Of a stretch of 40,591 nt of DNA, positions 1,693 to 31,111 are shown piece by piece. The notes beneath the pieces are model-generated. The model did no database searches and was not told where the DNA came from. It was given only the letters and a program-made list of their open reading frames with translations. How positions within the stretch are numbered: position 1 is the first letter of the stretch; each line of letters begins with the position of its first letter. Origin of the DNA: Pseudomonadota bacterium (GTDB taxonomy: Bacteria > Verrucomicrobiota > Verrucomicrobiia > Chthoniobacterales > UBA6821); assembly GCA_009928265.1 (NCBI GenBank), contig RFPR01000001.1, positions 1 to 40,591 on the forward strand. Direction: 5' to 3'. Made by a program: the position numbers and the translations under genes.

Positions 1693-3272
1693 ACACCCCG
1701 AACCACGATCACCCCGACCACGGCATGGTCGTACCCAGGAAGAGGTTCCGGATTTCTTGGGTATGGCTCTTCCCTGTCCTGGCGGCGATTGCGGCAGGCA
1801 CCATGTTCTACCGGAACTGGGTCAAGGAGGGGCCCATGATTTACGTGCAGTTTGCCTCCGCGCCCGGCATCAAGCCCGAGAAGACCCAGCTTTACTACCG
1901 CGGGGTCGAGGCCGGAACCGTCACTGGGATCCAGCTTGGCAAAAATCTGGACACGGTCTTGGTGAAAGTGCGCCTGCTCAGGCATGCGGAGGAACTGGCG
2001 CGCGAGGGGACGCTCTTCTGGATCGATCAACCGGTCTTCAATCTCGCCAAACCCTCCGGGATCGAGTCCCTGATTGAGGGGAATTCCCTCCAGGCACGCA
2101 AGGGATCGGGTTCCCCCGCTTATTTCTTTGTCGGCAGTGACGAGGTGCCATTAGCCCCGCTTGAGGCGGATCCTCTCTTGATTAAGCTCACTGCACCCGT
2201 GATTCCAGCCGTGGAGACCGGTGCGGAAGTCACCTATCGGGGACTTCCTGTCGGATTGGTTCGCAAAAAGGGTCTCGATGACAACGGCATGCCCTATCTT
2301 GAGGTTGGTTTAAGCACCCGGTACGCAAACCTTGTCAAAAACACCTCTCGTTTCTGGGTTGTGCCACCTCTCTCTGCAAAATTGGGCGCCGGCATTCTCC
2401 AGCTCGATATCTCCTCCTTGAAGTCGTTAATTCTTGGCGGGATTGCGTTCGATAACTTCGGTGATACCGGAATCATGGCCCTCAATCATGACAGGATCCC
2501 TCTGTATACAGATGAGACCATGGCGCGTTGCAGTTCCGATCCAATCACGCTCGACTTCAAGAACGGCCAAGGGCTCGTGGCGGGACTGACTCAGTTGCGT
2601 TATCTCGGATTGCCCGTCGGCATCGTGGAAAAAGTCGATCCCTCCCAGGGAAAGGTCCGTGTCACAGCTAGACTCTTGCCAGGTTATGATATGTTGCGCC
2701 GCAAGGGATCGATTTTCTCCATCATGCGACCGGTCATTGAACTGCAGAAAGTCAGCGGTTTGGAAACCCTGGTGAGCGGGATCTACATCGATTGCATTCC
2801 AGGGGAAAAGGGGCCCATGGTCTCACGGTTTCACGGTAGCAGTCAGGACGAAGCCGAATTGATCGACTATCAGGACGACAGCTTCGATGTGATTCTGGCG
2901 GCGTCCGCATCAAAGATTGGAGTCGGCACCCCGGTGATCTACCGCGGGGTTCCCATTGGCAAGATCACCCGCAAGGACCTTGCTCCCGGGGGTTCCGGAG
3001 TACGCCTAACCGCATCTGTCAAGCATCGCCACGCTTCGCTTCTTCATGAAAACAGCCACTTCTGGAATGCCGGAGGAGTTAGAATTTCCGGGGGGCTTAT
3101 CCAATTGAATGTCCAGTCCTCGGTGCTTGAGTCCAAGGGACTCGGTGGCGTGGAATTCTCAACCCCGGCGGGTGATGCCGCGGGTGCCGAGGTCAAGGAG
3201 GGGCATGTTTACGATCTTTATGACTCACCCAAAAAGGAGTGGCTCCAATGGCCAATCCCGCCGTTCAAGTAA
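1689..3272 (+). CDS. pqiB: PqiB-like multi-MCE (MlaD-domain) envelope lipid-transport protein
   Basis: 527 aa with an N-terminal TM anchor, then repeated MCE-like segments (YYRGVEAGTVTGI, TYRGLPVGLV, LRYLGLPVGIVEKV, VIYRGVPIGKI). Follows the PqiA-like genes. Confidence 0.7.
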   Translation: MNTPNHDHPDHGMVVPRKRFRISWVWLFPVLAAIAAGTMFYRNWVKEGPMIYVQFASAPGIKPEKTQLYYRGVEAGTVTGIQLGKNLDTVLVKVRLLRHAEELAREGTLFWIDQPVFNLAKPSGIESLIEGNSLQARKGSGSPAYFFVGSDEVPLAPLEADPLLIKLTAPVIPAVETGAEVTYRGLPVGLVRKKGLDDNGMPYLEVGLSTRYANLVKNTSRFWVVPPLSAKLGAGILQLDISSLKSLILGGIAFDNFGDTGIMALNHDRIPLYTDETMARCSSDPITLDFKNGQGLVAGLTQLRYLGLPVGIVEKVDPSQGKVRVTARLLPGYDMLRRKGSIFSIMRPVIELQKVSGLETLVSGIYIDCIPGEKGPMVSRFHGSSQDEAELIDYQDDSFDVILAASASKIGVGTPVIYRGVPIGKITRKDLAPGGSGVRLTASVKHRHASLLHENSHFWNAGGVRISGGLIQLNVQSSVLESKGLGGVEFSTPAGDAAGAEVKEGHVYDLYDSPKKEWLQWPIPPFK

Positions 3273-3291
3273 TCAAAGGGTCCTAGTCGGA

Positions 3292-3311
3292 GATGAGGGG
3301 TGCTCCTCATC
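3292..3311. terminator. hairpin between convergent pqiB-like and manA genes
   Basis: GATGAGG-ggtgct-CCTCATC 7-bp stem between two convergent stops. No strong T tract. Confidence 0.3.
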
Positions 3312-3327
3312 GGTTTCACCTCAACTC

Positions 3328-4299
3328 TTAGCTGGCTGAAACAGGCAATCTTGTCACAAGGATCGAGGTGTTTTCCCGCACAGGGTTGAGTAGGGCGCTT
3401 TCCATGGAGGAAGGAATAAGGAGGAATTCGCCGGGCAGAAGGCGGGCTCCTTCACACTCTGCCTCGCCGGAGAGGCCGGTAACGATGCAGAAGTCGCCTG
3501 GAGATGCCATGTCTAGGGGCGCCGAGATCGATTTCTTCTCCACATGGAAAAGGGGGCAGTTCGCCACGACGGGATTGGAGGAAGGTGTCACCGTTGGCTC
3601 GAAATCCTCGAAATCAATCGAAGCCATGGACTGTGGGATGTGAAGATCACGCGGTTTCCCGTCGAGGCCGGTCCGATTCCAATCAAAGACACGGTAGGTG
3701 GTATCGCTGTTCTGCTGGATCTCCACAATTACCAACCCGGCCCCGATGGCATGCAACCGACCGCTTGGGATAAAGATGCTCTCGCCGGCGGAAACAGGGG
3801 TGCTGTGCAGGTTCTCCTCCACGGTGCCCTCGGAGAGAGACTTTTCAAAATCGGCCCGTGTGACCCCTTTCTTGAGGCCGGCATAAATCGAGGCATCCCG
3901 ATCGGCGTCCAGGAAGTACCAGCATTCCGTCTTGGGTTCTCCTTGTAATTCCTCGACCCGGTGAGCGGGTGGATGTACCTGAACCGAAAGCCTGTCGCGA
4001 GCATCCAGCAGCTTCACCAGTAGGGGAAAACGTGGTGATGGATTAGCCAGATGGAGGGAACCGAAGACCGCTTGGCGTGATTCCGTCCAGAGGTCATGCA
4101 GGGTTTTGCCCTGAAGGGTCCCGCCGGACACGACGCTCTGGGCCTCAGGGCGGTCGACGATTTCCCAGAGTTCCCCGATCACGGCATCCTTGGGAAGATC
4201 CTTGCCAAGTAGAGTCTCGAAGTGCCGTCCGCCCCAGACACGTTCCATGGCGAGGGGGGTGAAGCGGATTGGGGCCGAAAAAGGTAGTTTTGAGGACAT
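3328..4299 (-). CDS. manA: type I phosphomannose isomerase (mannose-6-phosphate isomerase)
   Basis: 323 aa. Cupin-type PMI motifs are present: ELWEI, LSVQVHP, GESIFIPSGRLHAIGAGLVIVEIQQNSDTTYRVFDW. Confidence 0.7.
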   Translation of the reverse strand: MSSKLPFSAPIRFTPLAMERVWGGRHFETLLGKDLPKDAVIGELWEIVDRPEAQSVVSGGTLQGKTLHDLWTESRQAVFGSLHLANPSPRFPLLVKLLDARDRLSVQVHPPAHRVEELQGEPKTECWYFLDADRDASIYAGLKKGVTRADFEKSLSEGTVEENLHSTPVSAGESIFIPSGRLHAIGAGLVIVEIQQNSDTTYRVFDWNRTGLDGKPRDLHIPQSMASIDFEDFEPTVTPSSNPVVANCPLFHVEKKSISAPLDMASPGDFCIVTGLSGEAECEGARLLPGEFLLIPSSMESALLNPVRENTSILVTRLPVSAS

Positions 4300-4389
4300 A
4301 AACCGGAATTATCCAAAAAGCGCCCACGGTTGCCAAGAGCCGTGCGGTTCCTGCAAGATACACCGATGCTTCCATCCAGACGACGCGCC

Positions 4390-12409: not shown

Positions 12410-12494
12410 GCCGGCGTGGCGGAATTGGCAGACGCGCCGGACTCAAAATCCGGTGAGGCAACTCGTGTCGGTTCGAACCCGACCGCCGGTACCA
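12410..12494 (+). tRNA. tRNA-Leu (anticodon CAA), long variable arm, encoded CCA
   Basis: Cloverleaf read by eye. Acceptor GCCGGCG/CGCCGGT, anticodon stem CCGGA/TCCGG with loop CTCAAAA, variable arm GAG-gcaa-CTC, T arm GTCGG-TTCGAAC-CCGAC, 3' ACCA. Confidence 0.9.
12439..12492 (+). repeat. attL: tRNA 3' portion repeated at the far island end (16-nt plus 28-nt identical blocks)
   Basis: GGACTCAAAATCCGGT (12439-12454) and GTGTCGGTTCGAACCCGACCGCCGGTAC (12465-12492) recur exactly at 31055-31070 and 31084-31111. Confidence 0.85.
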
Positions 12495-14923: not shown

Positions 14924-16480
14924 TTATATGTTCCCTGGTCGGGTCGGATCCTTCGACTTCGGTAGGGTCATCTCCACTTCCTTCGCTAGCTCTTTGGCTT
15001 TGGATTTCATCCCCGGCACAAGCTGCAGGGCATTTGCGAAATGATGACCCATCCCAGAAATGAGGCTCTTGAAGGAAGCCTTCAGATCCTTCAGGGCTTT
15101 CTCGGCTTTCTCCCTAAGGGTTTTCTCCTTTGCCAGCTCTGCCTCGGCAGATTCCTTCGCCTTCACGGCATCCTCGATCTTTGAAACGGCAGACTTGTTG
15201 ATCTGCTGCAGCTCCTCCTTGCTTTTGAGCAAATACTCTAGGTCGTCAGCTTGCTTATCAATTACAGCATCCTTCTCAGTAATCTGGACATCTTTTACCT
15301 CTATTTTCTCCTCCAAGGTCGCAACCAGGGTCTTCAACCCTTCCAGCTCGTTCGCTAGCTCTTTCTCTCGCTCGCTCTTCTCTCTGACCAGATCTTCGGC
15401 TTGCTCCAACTTCTCTGCTAGGGAAGATTTCGCATCCTCAACCACCTGCTCGGCACTCTTCTTCAGCCCCAGAAGCCTAGATTCGTACCCTCGCTTCAAC
15501 CAAGCCACATAGTCGGTCCGGGCTCGACTGGCATCGATAGGAGCTACCGCTGCCAGTTTGGAGTTCATAAAATCATCCAAGGCTCGATGTAACCGGACAT
15601 CTCGGAGCCCGTCCTTAGGGTGCCTCAGCTCCTCTTTCTCCTTGTTCCACTCCACCACCTTCACAACCTCGGCACACAACTCCTGAATTTTGCTCTTATC
15701 CCAGCCAGCGTCAGCCAAGGCCTCCATATGACGGATCCAGGCAATAGTGCCCGAGCCCACCCCATAGTTCCTAAAGGGTACCCTCTCCCGGGCATACCTC
15801 GGCTCCTTCTGCTTGGAAATGTTCTCGTCGGTAATCGTTATCCCGCAGTGCCAAAGGTCATCATGTGCTTGGCCTGCGTCATTATGCTCGCCAACAAACA
15901 GGACTTTTCGCCCATAAATTTCCTCGAATAACTCTATTTTCAGGGCTCGGGCTTCAGCCATAATCTGCTCAACCTCCCCCTTTCGCCCACTGGCGAGCAT
16001 ATACTGCAAAGCACGAGAATGATCGGGTCTTAGGTCAATCGTCTCTCGCTTGATGTCGCTCGCAGGGTACCTGCCTATCTCCTTGCCCTCGGCATCTAAT
16101 ACCCTCTCTCTCAACTTCTCCGTTTTCCAATACTTTCGCTTCTCATTCGGGGGGGAGTGGTAGTGGTCATAAAACTTCATCGACTCCGTCAACTCCCTCT
16201 CCCATCCCTGACCCTCAACCAGCTCAAGTGATCCACCCCCCAAGGTCGTCTGGACCCTCCGGTAATTCCTCCCAGCAGGTAATCCATTCTCCCCTAAACT
16301 CGACTGCAGAAACGAAGACTTAAACGGTGCATACTTCCCATCTGCTAACTCGTGATACACCCACCTACCCTTCTCTTTTTTATCCTGCAACAACTTAAAC
16401 ATCTTAACATCATCCCGATGTTTTTCGGAATTAGCGTTGCCGTGGGCTATCGATTGATAAGTGGCTCTGCCTCTCTTCAT
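14924..16480 (-). CDS. putative diverged Mob/Pre (MobV-like) relaxase with a long C-terminal coiled coil
   Basis: 518 aa. N-terminal ...SEKHRDD... and FVGEHNDAGQAHDDLWH loosely resemble MobV motifs HxxR and HxDE..PHxH. The C-terminal ~180 aa are Glu/Lys-rich heptad-like. The function call is weak; the ORF itself is solid. Confidence 0.4.
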   Translation of the reverse strand: MKRGRATYQSIAHGNANSEKHRDDVKMFKLLQDKKEKGRWVYHELADGKYAPFKSSFLQSSLGENGLPAGRNYRRVQTTLGGGSLELVEGQGWERELTESMKFYDHYHSPPNEKRKYWKTEKLRERVLDAEGKEIGRYPASDIKRETIDLRPDHSRALQYMLASGRKGEVEQIMAEARALKIELFEEIYGRKVLFVGEHNDAGQAHDDLWHCGITITDENISKQKEPRYARERVPFRNYGVGSGTIAWIRHMEALADAGWDKSKIQELCAEVVKVVEWNKEKEELRHPKDGLRDVRLHRALDDFMNSKLAAVAPIDASRARTDYVAWLKRGYESRLLGLKKSAEQVVEDAKSSLAEKLEQAEDLVREKSEREKELANELEGLKTLVATLEEKIEVKDVQITEKDAVIDKQADDLEYLLKSKEELQQINKSAVSKIEDAVKAKESAEAELAKEKTLREKAEKALKDLKASFKSLISGMGHHFANALQLVPGMKSKAKELAKEVEMTLPKSKDPTRPGNI

Positions 16481-16634
16481 ACTAATTTTGTGGTACCTTA
16501 TACCCCTAAAGTCAAGGGTTTTCGATCTTTAAAAGATCTCTTTTTCTACCAGTTTGTTTTAACTAACCTCTTTGTAGTAGTTTCAAGTGCAATGGCCGCC
16601 AAAATTCCTACGTCATTTTATCGGCCAATTGCAC

Positions 16635-16848
16635 GGGAAAGTTGCACTTTCCCCCGCCCGTCGGCGGTTCCCCCTGGGGGGAGTTCCTCCCCCGAATTCC
16701 AAAGCGAATTCCCCCCTGATTTTTAAGGGTGGGAAGCCCCTTAAAAAGTAGGCTTTTACAGAGTAAAAGCGGACATCTTGCCCCCAGTGCTGGGCAAGAA
16801 AGAAGCAGCCCGGGGGGCGTCTCCATGGGTCCCCAAATCCCCCATGGA
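16635..16848. other. cluster of seven perfect 6-9-bp stem-loops (candidate oriT / single-strand origin / structured RNA)
   Basis: Hairpins at 16635-16653, 16677-16693, 16694-16711, 16721-16746, 16752-16770, 16776-16799 and 16822-16848. Confidence 0.6.
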
Positions 16849-16890
16849 AGCCCTAAAAAGTCTCCCAGAAGCGACCTACTAGCTCCCTAG

Positions 16891-17159
16891 TGTCTCCTTT
16901 TAGCTACCTAAAGTGTCTCCTTCTGGATCCTTTCTACTCCCTCGAAAACACCCTACTTACTACCTAGTTAATACCTGTTGTATCTTACTTACTACCTACT
17001 TACTACCTATCTAATACCTACTGGATCCTAAAATCCGATATTGTATCTATCTTTCTACCTACTGTCTCCTTTTGTATCCTTTTTGATCTATTTTTCTCTC
17101 ATGGCTCCTATTGTCTCTAATTTTCTCTAATCTTCCTATAATAGATACGAATTGTATCT
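16891..17159. repeat. G-poor iteron-like array of short direct repeats
   Basis: TGTCTCCTT x3 (16891, 16914, 17063). CTTACTACCTA x3 (16956, 16988, 16999) plus variants. TTGTATCT x3 plus a variant (16978, 17041, 17152; 17072). TAATACCT x2. CTGGATCCT x2. Confidence 0.7.
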
Positions 17160-17165
17160 TTTTAC

Positions 17166-17194
17166 TTGACATGAGTTATTCCACTAACCATAAT
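17166..17194 (+). promoter_or_regulatory. sigma70-like promoter, TTGACA-17 nt-CATAAT, 7 nt before the ATG
   Basis: TTGACA at 17166-17171 and CATAAT at 17189-17194. ATG at 17202 implies a leaderless or near-leaderless mRNA. Confidence 0.5.
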
Positions 17195-17201
17195 AAAACT
17201 T

Positions 17202-17870
17202 ATGGAAAGTTCAATGGAAAATCTTAATAATTCGCGTTCTGAGGCGGGTAGGGAACTTAGTGATGATGAGTTGATTTACCGATATTGCGAGACTTACGGA
17301 ATCAAATCCAGGGGTGCTCTCGTCCCTCATGCACCCGCCGTTTTTATCATCTCGAGACTCGAGGGGATCCGAGGTTGTGCTAAATACTTCTCGGAAACTC
17401 TCAATACTAAAGTCACTAAAAAACAAGTAGAAGGGATTCTTTTCAAGATCCGAAATAAACTTGTTAATGTCACCGAGGGGGACCTTCGCCTAGCTGCTCA
17501 GGCTCACCCTCGTGCGATGGCATACTTCCGGATGTACCCAGCCGCCCTAAGTCCTATGGTGAAAATGGAAGACGAGGGAGAGCTGGATGAAGGGGAGCTA
17601 ACTGGTGGAAATCTAGCTGGTGGAGGCGTGGCTGTGACTCCTAAAGAAATCAAGGAGGCAGGGAAGGAAACCGCCGGGCAGGATGCTCTGGATGGGCAAG
17701 ATGGGCAGGATGGTGGAGGGGAGGCTAGGAAGCCTCGATCTGCAGGAACCTCTGCAGGAACCTCTGCACCATCTAACCCTCCAAAAAGCACCTCTAAAGC
17801 TAGTGAACTAGCGAGGAACTTTGGGCAGCATTTTGCGGCAGCTAGTAGGAAGTTGCCAGTTAGACCTTGA
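17202..17870 (+). CDS. hypothetical protein, paralog 1 (shared ~60-aa domain plus Gly/Asp/Gln and Ser/Ala/Gly/Thr low-complexity tail)
   Basis: YCETYGIKSRGALVPHAPAVFIISRLEGIRGCAKYFSETL...KKQVEGILFKIRNK aligns with 18112 gene FFETYGVRGKGVLLPFAAQVYVIARYGGIRAATDYFSKKL...KRPIEDILNKIKRG. Confidence 0.65.
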   Translation: MESSMENLNNSRSEAGRELSDDELIYRYCETYGIKSRGALVPHAPAVFIISRLEGIRGCAKYFSETLNTKVTKKQVEGILFKIRNKLVNVTEGDLRLAAQAHPRAMAYFRMYPAALSPMVKMEDEGELDEGELTGGNLAGGGVAVTPKEIKEAGKETAGQDALDGQDGQDGGGEARKPRSAGTSAGTSAPSNPPKSTSKASELARNFGQHFAAASRKLPVRP

Positions 17871-17930
17871 TTTATTTATACCAAATAATACACCTATTTC
17901 TGTAGTTTCAATATACAGAATGATCTAAAA

Positions 17931-17963
17931 AGAGGGGCGAACACCCCTCTTTTTTCTTTTTTT
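17931..17963 (+). terminator. rho-independent terminator
   Basis: AGAGGGG-cgaaca-CCCCTCT followed by a 13-nt T-rich run. Confidence 0.75.
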
Positions 17964-18077
17964 GATTTAAGAAAAAGATGTCCACCTTCATGCAATAAGG
18001 GGTAAGAATCTGAACTCACATACTGGCATCTTTTAAAACATGAAGTGACATATTGGAACAATTTACAATGATTTGTC

Positions 18078-18111: not shown

Positions 18112-18534
18112 ATGCAAGAAAATTCAGGATCCTCCGATTTAACTCCCAATCTAACTACTGGGTCGCCTTCAGTCGACCTATCTGCAGTTAAGGGTACGAG
18201 GTACAATAAGGACATTCCCACAGGGGATATCTCCGTCGAGGAGTTCTTTGAAACCTACGGGGTGCGTGGAAAGGGTGTCCTTCTACCCTTCGCAGCCCAG
18301 GTCTATGTTATCGCTCGCTATGGCGGGATAAGGGCCGCAACCGACTACTTCTCCAAGAAGCTCGGTAGGAAACTTAGTAAGCGTCCCATCGAAGATATCC
18401 TCAACAAGATCAAGCGGGGGGAAATAGTCCTCACCGAAGCAGAGATTCGAGAAGAGGCAAGCAAACATCCCTTTGCAGCCAAATTCTTCGAATGTGAGTT
18501 AGCTAGGTCGACGAAATTTTATGAGCCACTCTAA
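18112..18534 (+). CDS. hypothetical protein, paralog 2
   Basis: 140 aa. Conserved domain shared with the 17202 gene. Confidence 0.65.
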   Translation: MQENSGSSDLTPNLTTGSPSVDLSAVKGTRYNKDIPTGDISVEEFFETYGVRGKGVLLPFAAQVYVIARYGGIRAATDYFSKKLGRKLSKRPIEDILNKIKRGEIVLTEAEIREEASKHPFAAKFFECELARSTKFYEPL

Positions 18535-18606: not shown

Positions 18607-18966
18607 ATGAATACCATGAAAATAAAAGAAAACTACAGCCCAGAGGTACTAATAGCAGTAATTACCGCAATAGCATTAGCCGTGATTGCCTGTCTATTCT
18701 ACCTAAGTAACAAAGAAGATGAGCGCCTTTTGAAACAAGTTCTCAGTGAAAACCCACCTGAATTCTCCATCTCTGGAACAACTTCAATGTTGGAAATACA
18801 TATCACCAAAGAAGAAGAAATTCTAGGCAGAAAAGTAGTACTTAACCAAAGGACAATTAGCATCGCACCGGACAGATTGGAAAAACTGTGTAAATCACAG
18901 AAAATTTCCAAGAACACAGAGCAAAAGCTAATAAAACAACTAGCAACACTTAACGCTAAAAACTGA
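18607..18966 (+). CDS. hypothetical N-terminally membrane-anchored protein (AT-rich gene)
   Basis: 119 aa. TM helix VLIAVITAIALAVIACLFYL, then a Lys/Glu-rich region. Confidence 0.55.
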   Translation: MNTMKIKENYSPEVLIAVITAIALAVIACLFYLSNKEDERLLKQVLSENPPEFSISGTTSMLEIHITKEEEILGRKVVLNQRTISIAPDRLEKLCKSQKISKNTEQKLIKQLATLNAKN

Positions 18967-18982: not shown

Positions 18983-19870
18983 ATGAAAAAACCATCAGAA
19001 AACATCCCAGAAAACGAAAGCAAACCCTTTCATAATGTTCTCTTTAGTGGGAACGACCGAGGGGGCGTAGGAAAAACCTTCAACAACACGCAACTCGGAG
19101 ATGCTCTGGAGGCTCTAGGCTACTCTGTCAACTTCGTCGACGCCGACCCGGGTAGTTCCTCCATGATCGGAATCGTTCCTTCCGCTAGGGTTGTTGATCC
19201 CAGTAAGGAGGAAGAGCTCGATCAGCTCTTCAGCGACATCGCCGAAGGTGATGCCGACCTTACCATCGTTGATTTAGGCGCCGGGACTACAGGTAGTAAC
19301 CTTGCAAAATACTTCGCCAATGGGGGCGATATCAGAGAACGCCTTGGAATCCGGGTCATCATCGGTATCTCGATCAACAGTGACCCAGAGGCAATCAAAT
19401 GCTCCATACCATGGATTGAAGGCTTATCCGAGGTCGGAGAGTTTATGACATTAGTAAGTCATGAAAAAACAATCCCATTTGACTTTAATAAACTTCCTGC
19501 AGGCGAAATCCTACTCGATATCTCTGAGAACAGGGTCATCCACTTCGCAAGACTTCCCGACAGGTTGCTCGAACACTACACCGCCAGGAAGGGCAAAGCT
19601 GCAGAATTCATCGAAGGGGGTGCTCTCGTCGACTACCTAGGGCTAAACATCTTCGAATCTGCAGCCTGGAATGTCTACCGAAACGACACAATTAACGGAG
19701 TTTACCCCTACGCCGAGTTTCTCACCGGGCGTAAAGCACCTAACCCACCAAAAGAGTACCCTCGCAAAGTTAAAGACGCCTCTAAAGAGAAGGAGAACAA
19801 AGCCAAGCTGATGCGGGAAAAAATCGCCGAAGCTCGTCGTAACCCCCTACCAGGTAGGGGAAAACGATAA
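18983..19870 (+). CDS. ParA/MinD-superfamily P-loop ATPase with Arg in place of the signature Lys
   Basis: LFSGNDRGGVGKT (deviant Walker A, KGGxxGKT with K to R), VNFVDADPG (A'), DLTIVDLGAG (Walker B), and a basic C-terminal tail. Confidence 0.65.
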   Translation: MKKPSENIPENESKPFHNVLFSGNDRGGVGKTFNNTQLGDALEALGYSVNFVDADPGSSSMIGIVPSARVVDPSKEEELDQLFSDIAEGDADLTIVDLGAGTTGSNLAKYFANGGDIRERLGIRVIIGISINSDPEAIKCSIPWIEGLSEVGEFMTLVSHEKTIPFDFNKLPAGEILLDISENRVIHFARLPDRLLEHYTARKGKAAEFIEGGALVDYLGLNIFESAAWNVYRNDTINGVYPYAEFLTGRKAPNPPKEYPRKVKDASKEKENKAKLMREKIAEARRNPLPGRGKR

Positions 19871-19907: not shown

Positions 19908-20591
19908 ATGTCCTACCGAGAACGATTCCTAGCTCTGTGCTCCCGTGACGAACGGGACGAGGCTGATCGTATGTGCGGGGGGTTATCCAATAACGATAAC
20001 AGCCCGCTATTCTGGGCTCTCCTGCAGATAAAACAACTCCCCTCGGCAATCGCTAAAGTCCTCGGCGACAATGTCGAAGCAATGCGGGAAATCAACCAGG
20101 GCAAGAAGGTCGCCCTCCTGCAGATCATCGCCTCACGGCTCTTCGCCGCAGTCATCCACGCAATCCTCGTCCTTGCTCTAGCACTCGGGGCGTTCGTGAT
20201 CATCACCAAAAAGCAGGAAGCTAGGCTGGGCACACTCGTCGAAAATAGCCGATCTCTCCTGCAGACCCAGAAGCAGCTAGCTGCAGATATGGCTACCTAC
20301 AAGGATGACCAAAGCGAACTCGGGCAAGGCGTGAAAACCATGTCAACACAGGTAAACTCCGCAGCAAAAGCAGCTAAAGATGAAATTCTCGCAGCCCGAG
20401 ATGCCTCCCTGAAAGACATCGAAAAGGGAGCCCAAGACTACAGAACCATCGCCAACCTTCTCAAATACTCGGGAGCCGGCGTCACCATCAACAGTCAGGG
20501 CGAACTCGTGCTCAAAACCTATAAATGGGGATACGAAATCGTGGATGACCCCACCCAAAACGGTGCCGTCACCATAATCCTCCACAAATGA
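19908..20591 (+). CDS. hypothetical membrane / coiled-coil protein
   Basis: 227 aa. One TM helix (LFAAVIHAILVLALALGAFVII), then a helical Gln/Lys/Ala-rich segment. Confidence 0.6.
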   Translation: MSYRERFLALCSRDERDEADRMCGGLSNNDNSPLFWALLQIKQLPSAIAKVLGDNVEAMREINQGKKVALLQIIASRLFAAVIHAILVLALALGAFVIITKKQEARLGTLVENSRSLLQTQKQLAADMATYKDDQSELGQGVKTMSTQVNSAAKAAKDEILAARDASLKDIEKGAQDYRTIANLLKYSGAGVTINSQGELVLKTYKWGYEIVDDPTQNGAVTIILHK

Positions 20592-28967: not shown

Positions 28968-29540
28968 ATGAAGATAGGATACGCACGAGTTAGCACGAAG
29001 GATCAGGACACAACAGCTCAGGAAGAAGCCCTTAAAGCTGCAGGGTGTGAAAAGATATACCATGAGATCGCTTCAGGCGGGAAATGGGAGAGGAAGGAAC
29101 TACACCGAATGCTCGACATGCTCAGACCAGGGGATGTCGTCATTGTCTGGAAGTTGGACAGGCTCTCCAGATCGTTGCGGGACCTCCTCTCAATCATCGA
29201 CACCTTCGCCAAACTCGATGTCGGCTTCGTCAGCCTCACGGAATCGGTGGATACGACATCAGCAGCAGGTCGGATGCTCCTCCAAATCATCGGCTCCTTC
29301 GGGGAATTCGAGAGAAACCTCATCCGTGAGAGGACCTATGCAGGTATCGCTAGAGCCAAGGCTCTAGGCAAGCATCTCGGTAGACCTTCCAAGCTCTCAG
29401 CTGAACAACGGGCTGAGGTCCTCCGTAGCATCAAGGCAGGAGAGAAGTCTCAGGCAGAATGGGCTCGCCTGTTCAATGTCGCCCCCTCGGCAATTTCTCG
29501 GCTCGTCGCCAAGGAGGCACTCACAAAACTTCTGAAGTGA
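28968..29540 (+). CDS. small serine recombinase (resolvase/invertase family)
   Basis: MKIGYARVSTKDQ catalytic-Ser motif, DVVIVWKLDRLSRS, GEFERNLIRERT, C-terminal HTH (SQAEWARLFNVAPSAISRL). Confidence 0.9.
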   Translation: MKIGYARVSTKDQDTTAQEEALKAAGCEKIYHEIASGGKWERKELHRMLDMLRPGDVVIVWKLDRLSRSLRDLLSIIDTFAKLDVGFVSLTESVDTTSAAGRMLLQIIGSFGEFERNLIRERTYAGIARAKALGKHLGRPSKLSAEQRAEVLRSIKAGEKSQAEWARLFNVAPSAISRLVAKEALTKLLK

Positions 29541-29543
29541 TTC

Positions 29544-29738
29544 CTAGGTGCGTCTCTTACTAGGAATAAGGAGCAGAGGCAGGTTCACGACCGCCACAAC
29601 CGCAGTCCAAATCAGCACAGCAGCTACACCAATGATCCCAGCGGCTATCTGGATCAGCCCAATCAGGAAATTGACCACTCCCTTCAGGAGCCAAGTCACC
29701 AAGAACACGCCCAATAGAAGTTCAATGGCAAGGCTCAT
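29544..29738 (-). CDS. small two-TM hydrophobic protein (64 aa) coupled to the integrase gene
   Basis: Start overlaps the integrase stop (ATGA on the minus strand). Almost entirely hydrophobic, with a basic C-terminus SKRRT. Confidence 0.45.
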   Translation of the reverse strand: MSLAIELLLGVFLVTWLLKGVVNFLIGLIQIAAGIIGVAAVLIWTAVVAVVNLPLLLIPSKRRT

Positions 29739-30985
29739 AGGGTTCCTTCCGGTGCATCGTCGGGTAGGGGATCCTTATCACACAGGCTCTCCACATAGGC
29801 GGGAAGCAGTCTCCAGAACTCCGCACAATCCTCCTCGGTGACGGCGTCGACATAGTTGCTCCTCACTACGGAAGGGCTATTTCCCATCTCGTAGCTGGTC
29901 AGTCCTTCATCTTTCTTCCATGCCAGATGATACGACCCATAGAGGTGTCTCAGGGCATTTTGAGGCCAGGGGGTAATCCCTGCAGCATGGGCAATGGTCT
30001 TCATCTCAGCATACCAAGCAGCGGGGCGGTTGGCTCTCTCTGGTCTTGCTGAGAAGACCAGCTCGTCCTTCTTGCCTTTCTTGCAGAGCAGCAACCATCC
30101 CTTCAGCGGCGGAGTAATGGTGATACTTCGACGGCGTCCGGTTTTGGAAAATCCTGCCTGGACGATGATCGTCGAGCCAACATCGCCCCATGGGATCTTG
30201 AACAGTTCCTCGTTGCGAATGCCTGAGAAGGCCTTCATCGCCAAGCTCGCCAACATCTTCGGAGCAATCTGCTGGGTCGTCCAAAGCAACGAAGCCACCT
30301 GCTCAGGGGTGAAGATGACCTTTTGCGATGCAACCTTGCGGGGAGCCTTTATCCCATCGAGCGGGTTCTCCTTGATCCAACGCTGAGCAACTGCGTCGTT
30401 GAACAGGATGTTCAGATACCTCCTCCGCTTCGCCCGCTGGGAAGGGGATGGGTTGTTTCCCCTCCCATCCTTGGCAGAGAGGATCTGCAGGATCCGATCT
30501 CGGTCGAAGTCGCCAATGGACTCCTTCTCCATACCGTCGAAGTAGAAATCGTACTTCTCCGCCATGTCCTTGAGGTGCCTAGCTCCGCAGCCTTCCGTCT
30601 TTTTCAAATCCAAAAGCTTCTCCACGGCATCCTCTACGCTTGGAGCCTTGGATGATGGTCTACGCTCCAGCCAGAAATCCACAACCTCCCGGAGCGGGGT
30701 AGGGGAGATTCTCGCCAAAGCAACTCGGATCTCAGCCATGTCCAAGGTCGACACCCCCAGCTCCTTCGCCTTTTCGAGCTCGCCTGCAGTCTTTTTCTTG
30801 AGTTCGGCAATGTAGCTCAATGCCTTCTCGTGCGAGGAAAAAAACTTCCGGATGATTTCACGCCCGGTGAATTTCTTCCCCACACGAACGACCCAGCGGT
30901 TACGATCTTTGCGGAGGGATACCCCGTGCGGTAGCTTGGGCTCCTTGGGTTTTTGGGGGCGTTTCATGCCCCAATCCAAGGCCAT
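29735..30985 (-). CDS. int: tyrosine site-specific integrase
   Basis: SAM-like N-domain. Catalytic-domain landmarks FSGIRNEEL (Arg), ALRHLYGSY (His-x-x-Arg region), GNSPSVVRSNY (Tyr). Adjacent to attR. Alternative ATG at 30967. Confidence 0.85.
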   Translation of the reverse strand: MALDWGMKRPQKPKEPKLPHGVSLRKDRNRWVVRVGKKFTGREIIRKFFSSHEKALSYIAELKKKTAGELEKAKELGVSTLDMAEIRVALARISPTPLREVVDFWLERRPSSKAPSVEDAVEKLLDLKKTEGCGARHLKDMAEKYDFYFDGMEKESIGDFDRDRILQILSAKDGRGNNPSPSQRAKRRRYLNILFNDAVAQRWIKENPLDGIKAPRKVASQKVIFTPEQVASLLWTTQQIAPKMLASLAMKAFSGIRNEELFKIPWGDVGSTIIVQAGFSKTGRRRSITITPPLKGWLLLCKKGKKDELVFSARPERANRPAAWYAEMKTIAHAAGITPWPQNALRHLYGSYHLAWKKDEGLTSYEMGNSPSVVRSNYVDAVTEEDCAEFWRLLPAYVESLCDKDPLPDDAPEGTL

Positions 30986-31054: not shown

Positions 31055-31111
31055 GGACTCAAAATCCGGTATCCTCTAAAGATGTGTCGGTTCGAACCCG
31101 ACCGCCGGTAC
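31055..31111 (+). repeat. attR: partial tRNA-Leu copy (anticodon loop to acceptor 3' strand) with a different variable arm
   Basis: 16-nt and 28-nt blocks identical to the tRNA, separated by ATCCTCTAAAGAT instead of GAGGCAACTC. No 5' half, no CCA. Confidence 0.85.

Follow-up and report, generated by a model that had tools for sequence, protein, structure and literature searches.

A phased direct-repeat lattice next to an uncharacterised gene family in an integrated Verrucomicrobiota island: a candidate protein-docking site of Stb-like design

In the type Ib and type II plasmid centromeres (namely, parH with ParG-ParF of TP228, and parC with ParR of R1, pB171 and pSK41), helically phased direct repeats of 10–11 bp lie beside the par promoter, and a small centromere-binding protein coats the repeats cooperatively and also autoregulates. 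Iteron origins of replication are built of three to seven repeats of 17–22 bp, at a spacing of about 22 bp. In the IncW plasmid R388, the interval between oriT and stbABC contains two sets of five 9-bp repeats, separated by 2-bp spacers, to which StbA binds. StbA represses its own promoter, plasmid stability requires it both in cis and in trans, and StbA and StbB jointly determine how much conjugation takes place (PMC3098194; bioRxiv 10.1101/2022.04.29.490116). Partition systems are also used by ICEs for the excised form (PMC4489591). Here, a repeat array of related geometry is described from an island of a Verrucomicrobiota genome, and compared with these systems.

The array lies in the window (the whole stretch of DNA that was analysed, 40.6 kb), whose contig is part of a 2.2-Mb Verrucomicrobiota assembly. 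Direct repeats at a tRNA-Leu gene, together with integrase-like and resolvase genes, give the bounds of an integrated island of 18.6 kb (Table 1). The array occupies a 720-bp gap between a minus-strand gene for a relaxase-like (Mob-like) protein and the plus-strand gene X222 (X), and the latter is followed, in order, by its paralogue X140, a small membrane protein, a ParA-like ATPase, gene Y and a type I restriction-modification operon. The module found in the window is composed of the relaxase-like gene, a hairpin cluster, the phased repeats, a promoter, X and then the ParA-like ATPase. GATC occurs 311 times on the plus strand of the window, about twice the 159 expected with equal base frequencies, and three of these sites are inside the array, within TGGATCC and TTGATCT units.

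Table 1. Positions of the features of the island and of the array-bearing module (numbered from the first letter of the window)
Feature	Position	Strand	Remarks
tRNA-Leu gene	12410–12494		last 28 bases recur at attR
attL	12465–12492	+	3' end of tRNA-Leu; 28-bp perfect direct repeat
Divergent relaxase-like (Mob-like) gene	14924–16480	−	518 aa; coiled-coil C-terminus
Hairpin cluster	16590–16858		candidate transfer/processing origin; directly 5' of the array
Repeat lattice (array)	16859–17162	+	about 28 direct repeat units; includes 16891–17159 of the earlier note
Promoter of X222	17166–17194	+	sigma-70-type, TTGACA-17-CATAAT; 11 of 12 consensus positions
X222	17202–17870	+	222 aa; candidate array binder; uncharacterised all-helical family
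Intrinsic terminator 3' of X222	17927–17954	+	11-pair stem, then T run
X140	18112–18534	+	X paralogue with the domain, without the tail
ParA/MinD-type P-loop ATPase gene	18983–19870	+	295 aa; divergent; deviant Walker A DRGGVGKT, residues 24–31
Y	19908–20591	+	227 aa; membrane-spanning coiled-coil protein after the ATPase
Resolvase gene	28968–29540		
Integrase-like gene	29735–30985		
attR	31084–31111		28-bp copy identical to attL

The earlier note on this DNA had described several families of interleaved repeats, and every repeat it listed was recovered: TGTCTCCTT at 16891, 16914 and 17063, CTTACTACCTA at 16956, 16988 and 16999, TTGTATCT at 16978, 17041 and 17152, TAATACCT at 16969 and 17012, CTGGATCCT at 16923 and 17021, and TTTTCTCT(C/A) at 17092 and 17121, with TTGACA at 17166. 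However, these are not separate families but copies of one degenerate 9-bp unit (at most two alternating box types), TRNNWCCTW, which is followed by a spacer of 1–2 bp, is repeated at a pitch of 10–11 bp and keeps a single orientation throughout. The lattice is nearly continuous; it starts about 30 bp before the stretch first described, and its last unit ends 4 bp 5' of the −35 box of X, in agreement with the claim that the array ends at this promoter. When the units were laid out by dynamic programming with steps of 9–12 bp, the lattice scored 190.8, as against 99.4 ± 10.9 in dinucleotide shuffles (about 8 s.d. above), and the same method, applied to R388 as a positive control, recovered its array as 2 × 5 units at 11 bp. 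Between 16891 and 17159 there are 33 repeated 8-mers, compared with 4.3 ± 2.7 in dinucleotide-preserving shuffles, none of 2000 of which equalled this number, and self-identity is maximal at lags of 10 (z = 3.2) and 11 (z = 3.8). The shuffles keep the skewed composition yet give far fewer repeats, and thus composition does not explain the repeats.

The composition itself is as the earlier note had it, with some 270 bp almost free of G on the top strand: the base counts for 16891–17159 are A60, C72, G23 and T114 (G = 8.6%), and the 269-bp stretch with the lowest G in the window starts within it, at 16927 (G = 7.4%). Because all units run in the same direction and a unit has G only at positions 2–3, the top strand is poor in G; the G-poverty is a by-product of unit orientation and no separate feature. 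In the 2.2-Mb assembly, the array is the biggest non-coding cluster of the unit, and the remaining clusters are collagen-like coding repeats on AT-rich contigs. These GXY coding repeats, and an 18-bp tandem repeat, were found in the short contigs C70 (1–300), C200 (1–300) and C176 (280–380), whose composition is unlike that of the window and which may represent bin contamination. No convincing secondary sites of the unit, of the kind represented by the stbDR copies at other R388 promoters, were found in the island, and no Rfam family matched the region.

Three further roles were considered and rejected. Folded as single-stranded DNA, the array reaches −13.8 kcal/mol over 307 nt (z = −2.2) and is almost without structure, so that a single-strand role for the array itself was discarded. 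Arm-type recombinase sites were dismissed since the array is 4.4 kb from attL. The CUCCUU-like units were also rejected as anti-Shine-Dalgarno mimics in RNA, because no promoter reads into the array and the unit of a related locus (L005, below) is unrelated.

Related loci came from two sources. Homologues of the Mob-like protein are rare (18 in 5.8 billion clusters), and their contigs supplied several loci; two more, L017 and L018, were found through homologues of X. Neither the Mob-like protein nor the X profile was found in 400 other Verrucomicrobiota genomes sampled. In L003, whose Mob-like protein is 92% identical, the same array is present and differs at 2 of 304 bases; its identity (99.3%) exceeds that of the Mob-like CDS (94.5%) and of the X CDS (97.6%), and, being more conserved than the flanking coding DNA, the array is, on this sequence comparison, under purifying selection. 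In L004 (Mob-like protein 50% identical), the array extends for 430 bp and comprises about 40 units; A boxes (GGTCTCYTT) take turns with B boxes (NCGACCTNN), forming a super-unit of 21 bp in about 20 copies, and the units nearest the promoter, TGTCTCCTA and ACTACCTAT, are almost identical to those of the window. The X of L004 shows 47% identity to that of the window over the full length (BLAST) and 67% in the conserved N-terminal domain. L017 and L018 have TATCCTT and TACCTA units that end at CTTGACATGAGTTA, and in L005, with an X of 38% identity, ten ACCACAKTW units follow each other at an exact pitch of 11 bp and end at the −35 box of that locus. In short, the geometry and the anchoring at the promoter are kept while the unit sequence changes as X diverges. 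The comparison among related islands that the earlier note had proposed thus finds the architecture conserved, with about 28 units in the window, about 40 in L004 and ten in L005.

A position weight matrix trained on the window alone, and applied elsewhere without refitting, gave z = 11.3 in L004, 6.9 in L017 and 1.9 in L018 (a truncated locus), and about 0 in L005, L007 and the three loci L009, L011 and L013, which lack X; the opposite strand was negative at every locus. Counting repeated 7-mers, which presupposes no motif, gave z = 4.9–10.5 in the five X-bearing loci, as against −0.9 to 3.7 in L009, L011, L013 and L021. These four are Mob-like loci that lack X; the G+C-rich hairpins are kept in them and there is no array. 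Since the array is present with X and missing from Mob-like loci that lack it, it is a property of the X module, although the co-variation of unit and X is drawn from about five semi-independent, mutually related loci; the contig of L020 has only 51 bp of upstream sequence. In a more distant island, a weaker array (L007:5540–5720, z = 3.7) with AATTAAGAT and ATTTGATG units precedes an unrelated gene for a 149-aa HTH-like protein, and in L008 this gene is followed by a ParA-like gene.

These comparisons bear on whether the stretch has any function at all. Degenerate units and a skewed composition are what neutral low-complexity DNA, left by replication slippage, might be expected to show. Such DNA would hardly be better conserved than the coding sequences around it, nor retain its motif in islands with proteins of only about 50% identity, with the phase and orientation kept and the end of the array anchored at the −35 box in every locus, and we regard a functionless origin as extremely improbable. 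The evidence from sequence supports the view that the stretch behaves like a direct-repeat protein-binding platform under constraint.

The array touches the hairpin cluster, which, as single-stranded DNA, folds at −62.3 kcal/mol (−40.2 ± 3.9 in shuffles, z = −5.7), and beyond it lies the Mob-like gene. The Mob-like family has the invariant residues H199, D201, H206, D208 and H211 (an H-x-D-x4-H-x-D-x2-H cluster). An AF2 model of residues 1–340 (pLDDT 87) found TrwC and TraI relaxases as its top four Foldseek matches in PDB, and these weak matches (E = 7e-3 to 0.23, TM about 0.2) suggest a relaxase-like role for the 518-aa protein. The repeats could be pictured as a relaxosome accessory site, on which the Mob-like protein itself, or some accessory factor, would bend the DNA at the transfer origin, as TraK does at the oriT of RP4. 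TraK of RP4, a homologue of StbA, binds between nic and traK (PMC3098194). The plan of the RP4 region is similar, in that the accessory protein coats a long stretch by nic and the ParA-like TraL (a StbB homologue) is encoded downstream; the TraK region, however, has no regular repeat lattice. Against this, where the X module is missing, the Mob-like homologues still have the hairpins and show no array, so the array follows X, not Mob, and an accessory site serving the relaxase-like protein is quite unlikely. If X were itself that accessory factor, this alternative would overlap with the explanation favoured below.

On its other side, the array faces a promoter from whose −10 box the ATG of X is only 7 nt away, a leaderless-type arrangement, and the layout CTTGACATGAGTTA...CATAAT...ATG is common to L003, L017 and L018. 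It is conceivable that the array acts in transcription only and takes no part in segregation or transfer, being either curved, UP-element-like DNA made of phased T-rich repeats or a set of operator or activator sites that serve the X promoter. Such a role would fit with the near-consensus promoter whose −35 box the array adjoins, with the helical phasing of the T-tracts at 17070, 17080 and 17091, and with the separate terminator of X222. But 300–430 bp and 28–40 units far exceed promoter usage, the conserved core is CCT and not the T-tracts, the ACCACA unit of L005 keeps the same geometry, and the array is always accompanied by the ParA-like module; a purely transcriptional role is thus unlikely. 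In view of the terminator, co-transcription of X222 with the ATPase is not clear, and because the array is wholly upstream of the −35 box, and not over the promoter, repression is not an obvious outcome. The promoter of X140 (TTGACA at about 18078) has no phased array upstream; two copies of ACATAYTGG, about 30 bp apart, are found there (18018–18060).

The earlier note had taken the array for a binding platform, and of the functions it offered, that of a partition site, centromere or autoregulator appears to fit best, given the ParA-like ATPase module and the abutting promoter, whereas that of replication iterons has no support. A vegetative replication origin of the excised island, served by an unrecognised initiator, would share with the iterons of pSC101, F, R6K and RK2 the direct repeats in one orientation and, in L004, a 21-bp paired unit at the classical iteron spacing, and an A+T-rich flank is also present. 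Yet no Rep-like protein was recognised among the island ORFs tested against Pfam, NCBIfam and PHROGs, and the same holds for ParB, as the note had said. The DnaA box TTWTNCACA has no match in the whole window, no flanking DUE signature is seen, and the 28–40 units at a pitch of one helical turn are five to ten times as many as in iteron origins. In addition, the island is integrated at tRNA-Leu with att repeats, and the relaxase-like gene and hairpins are better suited to processing of the rolling-circle type. We therefore consider an iteron-type origin very unlikely.

The earlier note also named the X family as the putative binder, and it is the best candidate on the present evidence, since the array tracks the X module among the islands. 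In X222, an acidic linker of low complexity joins a conserved N-terminal domain (about 100 aa) to a basic peptide at the C-terminus, and X140 is 39% identical to X222 over 88 aa (E = 3e-20). The family has 82 representatives at 50% identity (in 1.8 billion proteins). X222 has no match in Pfam, NCBIfam or PDB sequences, including searches with the X profile against Pfam and PDB, and no DNA-binding domain is recognised in it. An AF2 model of X residues 1–123, of moderate confidence (pLDDT 75), consists of helices only; its Foldseek search gave nothing significant, the best match being the small terminase of phage G20c (E about 1), and a DNA-binding fold is plausible on this model. The conserved C-terminal basic peptide (KAR..FG..F / RKLPVRP), behind the long acidic linker, is encoded at 17780–17870 of the window and occurs in the homologues P0022 and P0103, and X140 and the L005-type X lack it; it could contact the ATPase. 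A word-based search with X140 matched X140 alone, and the matches from pattern searches with the X alignment, in metagenome and genome collections, were rejected by tblastn.

A rival binder might be sought in a small HTH protein, 's'. Its HTH region is almost identical in L004 and L005, although the repeat units of these loci differ completely, and it is absent from the window; for these reasons X is the better candidate. A comparison of X with 's' gave an hhalign probability of 11% over a GIR..A..F segment, a hint only. The slot between X and the ATPase harbours a conserved HTH-like protein of 94–103 aa in L004 (4371–4655) and L005 (3058–3369), and in the window it is occupied by another paralogue of X together with an unrelated membrane protein of 119 aa (18607–18966), and these differing contents indicate that the module has been rearranged.

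The ATPase shows weak matches to Pfam CbiA/ParA and NCBIfam ParA_partition at its Walker A motif. Its family profile matches ParF (4dzz), ParA and MinD chains in PDB with E-values of 1e-4 to 1e-3, the ParF match spanning residues 21–99 (E = 2e-4), and these sequence matches support its membership in the ParA/MinD superfamily. It is a small Walker-type ParA without an N-terminal HTH, as in type Ib systems. The ATPase gene is conserved beside X in L004 and L005, and an orthologue in L008 is beside the unrelated 149-aa gene. A tblastn search of 72,556 plasmids with the ATPase gave one marginal match, and the L005 ATPase has a faint match to the TraL model PRK13886 (E = 0.019, below any threshold). 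For Y no family match was found, and weak homologues occupy the same position in L004 and L005. L004 also has, at 2200–4387, two ParA-like paralogues (285 and 289 aa, 49% identical) that flank a 154-aa gene resembling the N-terminal half of Y.

Our preferred explanation, to which we give a probability of roughly 0.55, is that the 300-bp stretch acts in cis as a lattice on which a sequence-specific DNA-binding protein docks (in all likelihood X, perhaps with X140), and that the complex serves autoregulation and the positioning or stabilisation of the island. Each unit of about 10.5 bp would set one WCCT recognition core on the same face of the helix, and X would coat the DNA cooperatively from the hairpin cluster to the −35 box. 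The resulting complex would control the X promoter, as autoregulation, and would offer the ParA-like ATPase and the membrane protein Y a handle for positioning or stabilising the island once it is excised; possibly, it also presents the island for transfer from the adjacent hairpin origin. By analogy, such a design would work like R388 stbS/StbA/StbB and the parC-type centromeres. We also put forward, as a tentative and rather doubtful extension, that X founds a new family of centromere-binding or transfer-control proteins. In that case X would polymerise on a lattice of 300–430 bp (28–40 units) and couple, through its basic C-terminal peptide, to the divergent ATPase and the membrane protein, forming a segregation or membrane-docking machine of excised, mobilisable Verrucomicrobiota islands that evolved independently of StbA/StbB and ParABS.

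If X does bind the lattice, a design of proteobacterial plasmids would have arisen in a poorly studied phylum, within integrated islands and from proteins of unrelated families, and phased repeats beside a transfer origin, with a small protein and a ParA-type ATPase, may represent a general solution for balancing inheritance and transfer. Three protein families that are uncharacterised, those of X, of the divergent ATPase and of the relaxase-like protein, would also become open to functional study for the first time, and metagenomes could be searched for such islands by the signature of an array that ends at the −35 box of X.

Among the systems described, type Ib and type II centromeres share with the window the phased direct repeats of 10–11 bp adjoining a promoter, and the ATPase profile matches ParF. 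In contrast to them, the candidate binder of the window is encoded first, the ATPase is highly divergent and the array is two to three times longer; unlike in type Ib, no RHH centromere-binding protein is encoded after the ATPase, where Y is the next gene. In R388, stbS (the stbDR array), like that of IncN and other MOB-Stb regions (Guynet et al. 2011; Quebre et al.), consists of direct repeats of 9 bp that short spacers set one helical turn apart, all in a single orientation. The R388 layout (trwABC, oriT, stbS, stbABC) similarly places the array between the origin, a candidate one in the window, and the promoter of an operon whose transcription leads away from the relaxase (or relaxase-like) gene. 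In both, a small helical protein is encoded first, and next comes an ATPase of ParA type whose Walker A is deviant; the R388 array serves at once as operator and as a centromere-like site. There are also differences: R388 has 2 × 5 units, as against about 28 in the window and 40 in L004; in the window the whole array is upstream of the −35 box, the module includes membrane proteins and a further paralogue of X, and the host is an integrated 18.6-kb island of Verrucomicrobiota with no type IV secretion system and an unclassified relaxase-like protein. As for the proteins, StbA, which has a PadR-like HTH at its N-terminus, gave an hhalign probability of 0.07% when compared with X (a 59-member profile), StbB compared with the window ATPase gave E = 0.041 and a probability of 1.3%, and neither StbA nor PadR structures were among the Foldseek PDB matches of X. 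With no detectable homology between X and StbA, or between the ATPase and StbB, membership in the Stb family fails on the proteins, and the likeness to Stb seems, as far as sequence comparison can detect, to be one of design and not of descent. What is new here is that the proteins belong to unrelated families, that the lattice is so long and that it is found in a Verrucomicrobiota island which is integrated and probably mobilisable.
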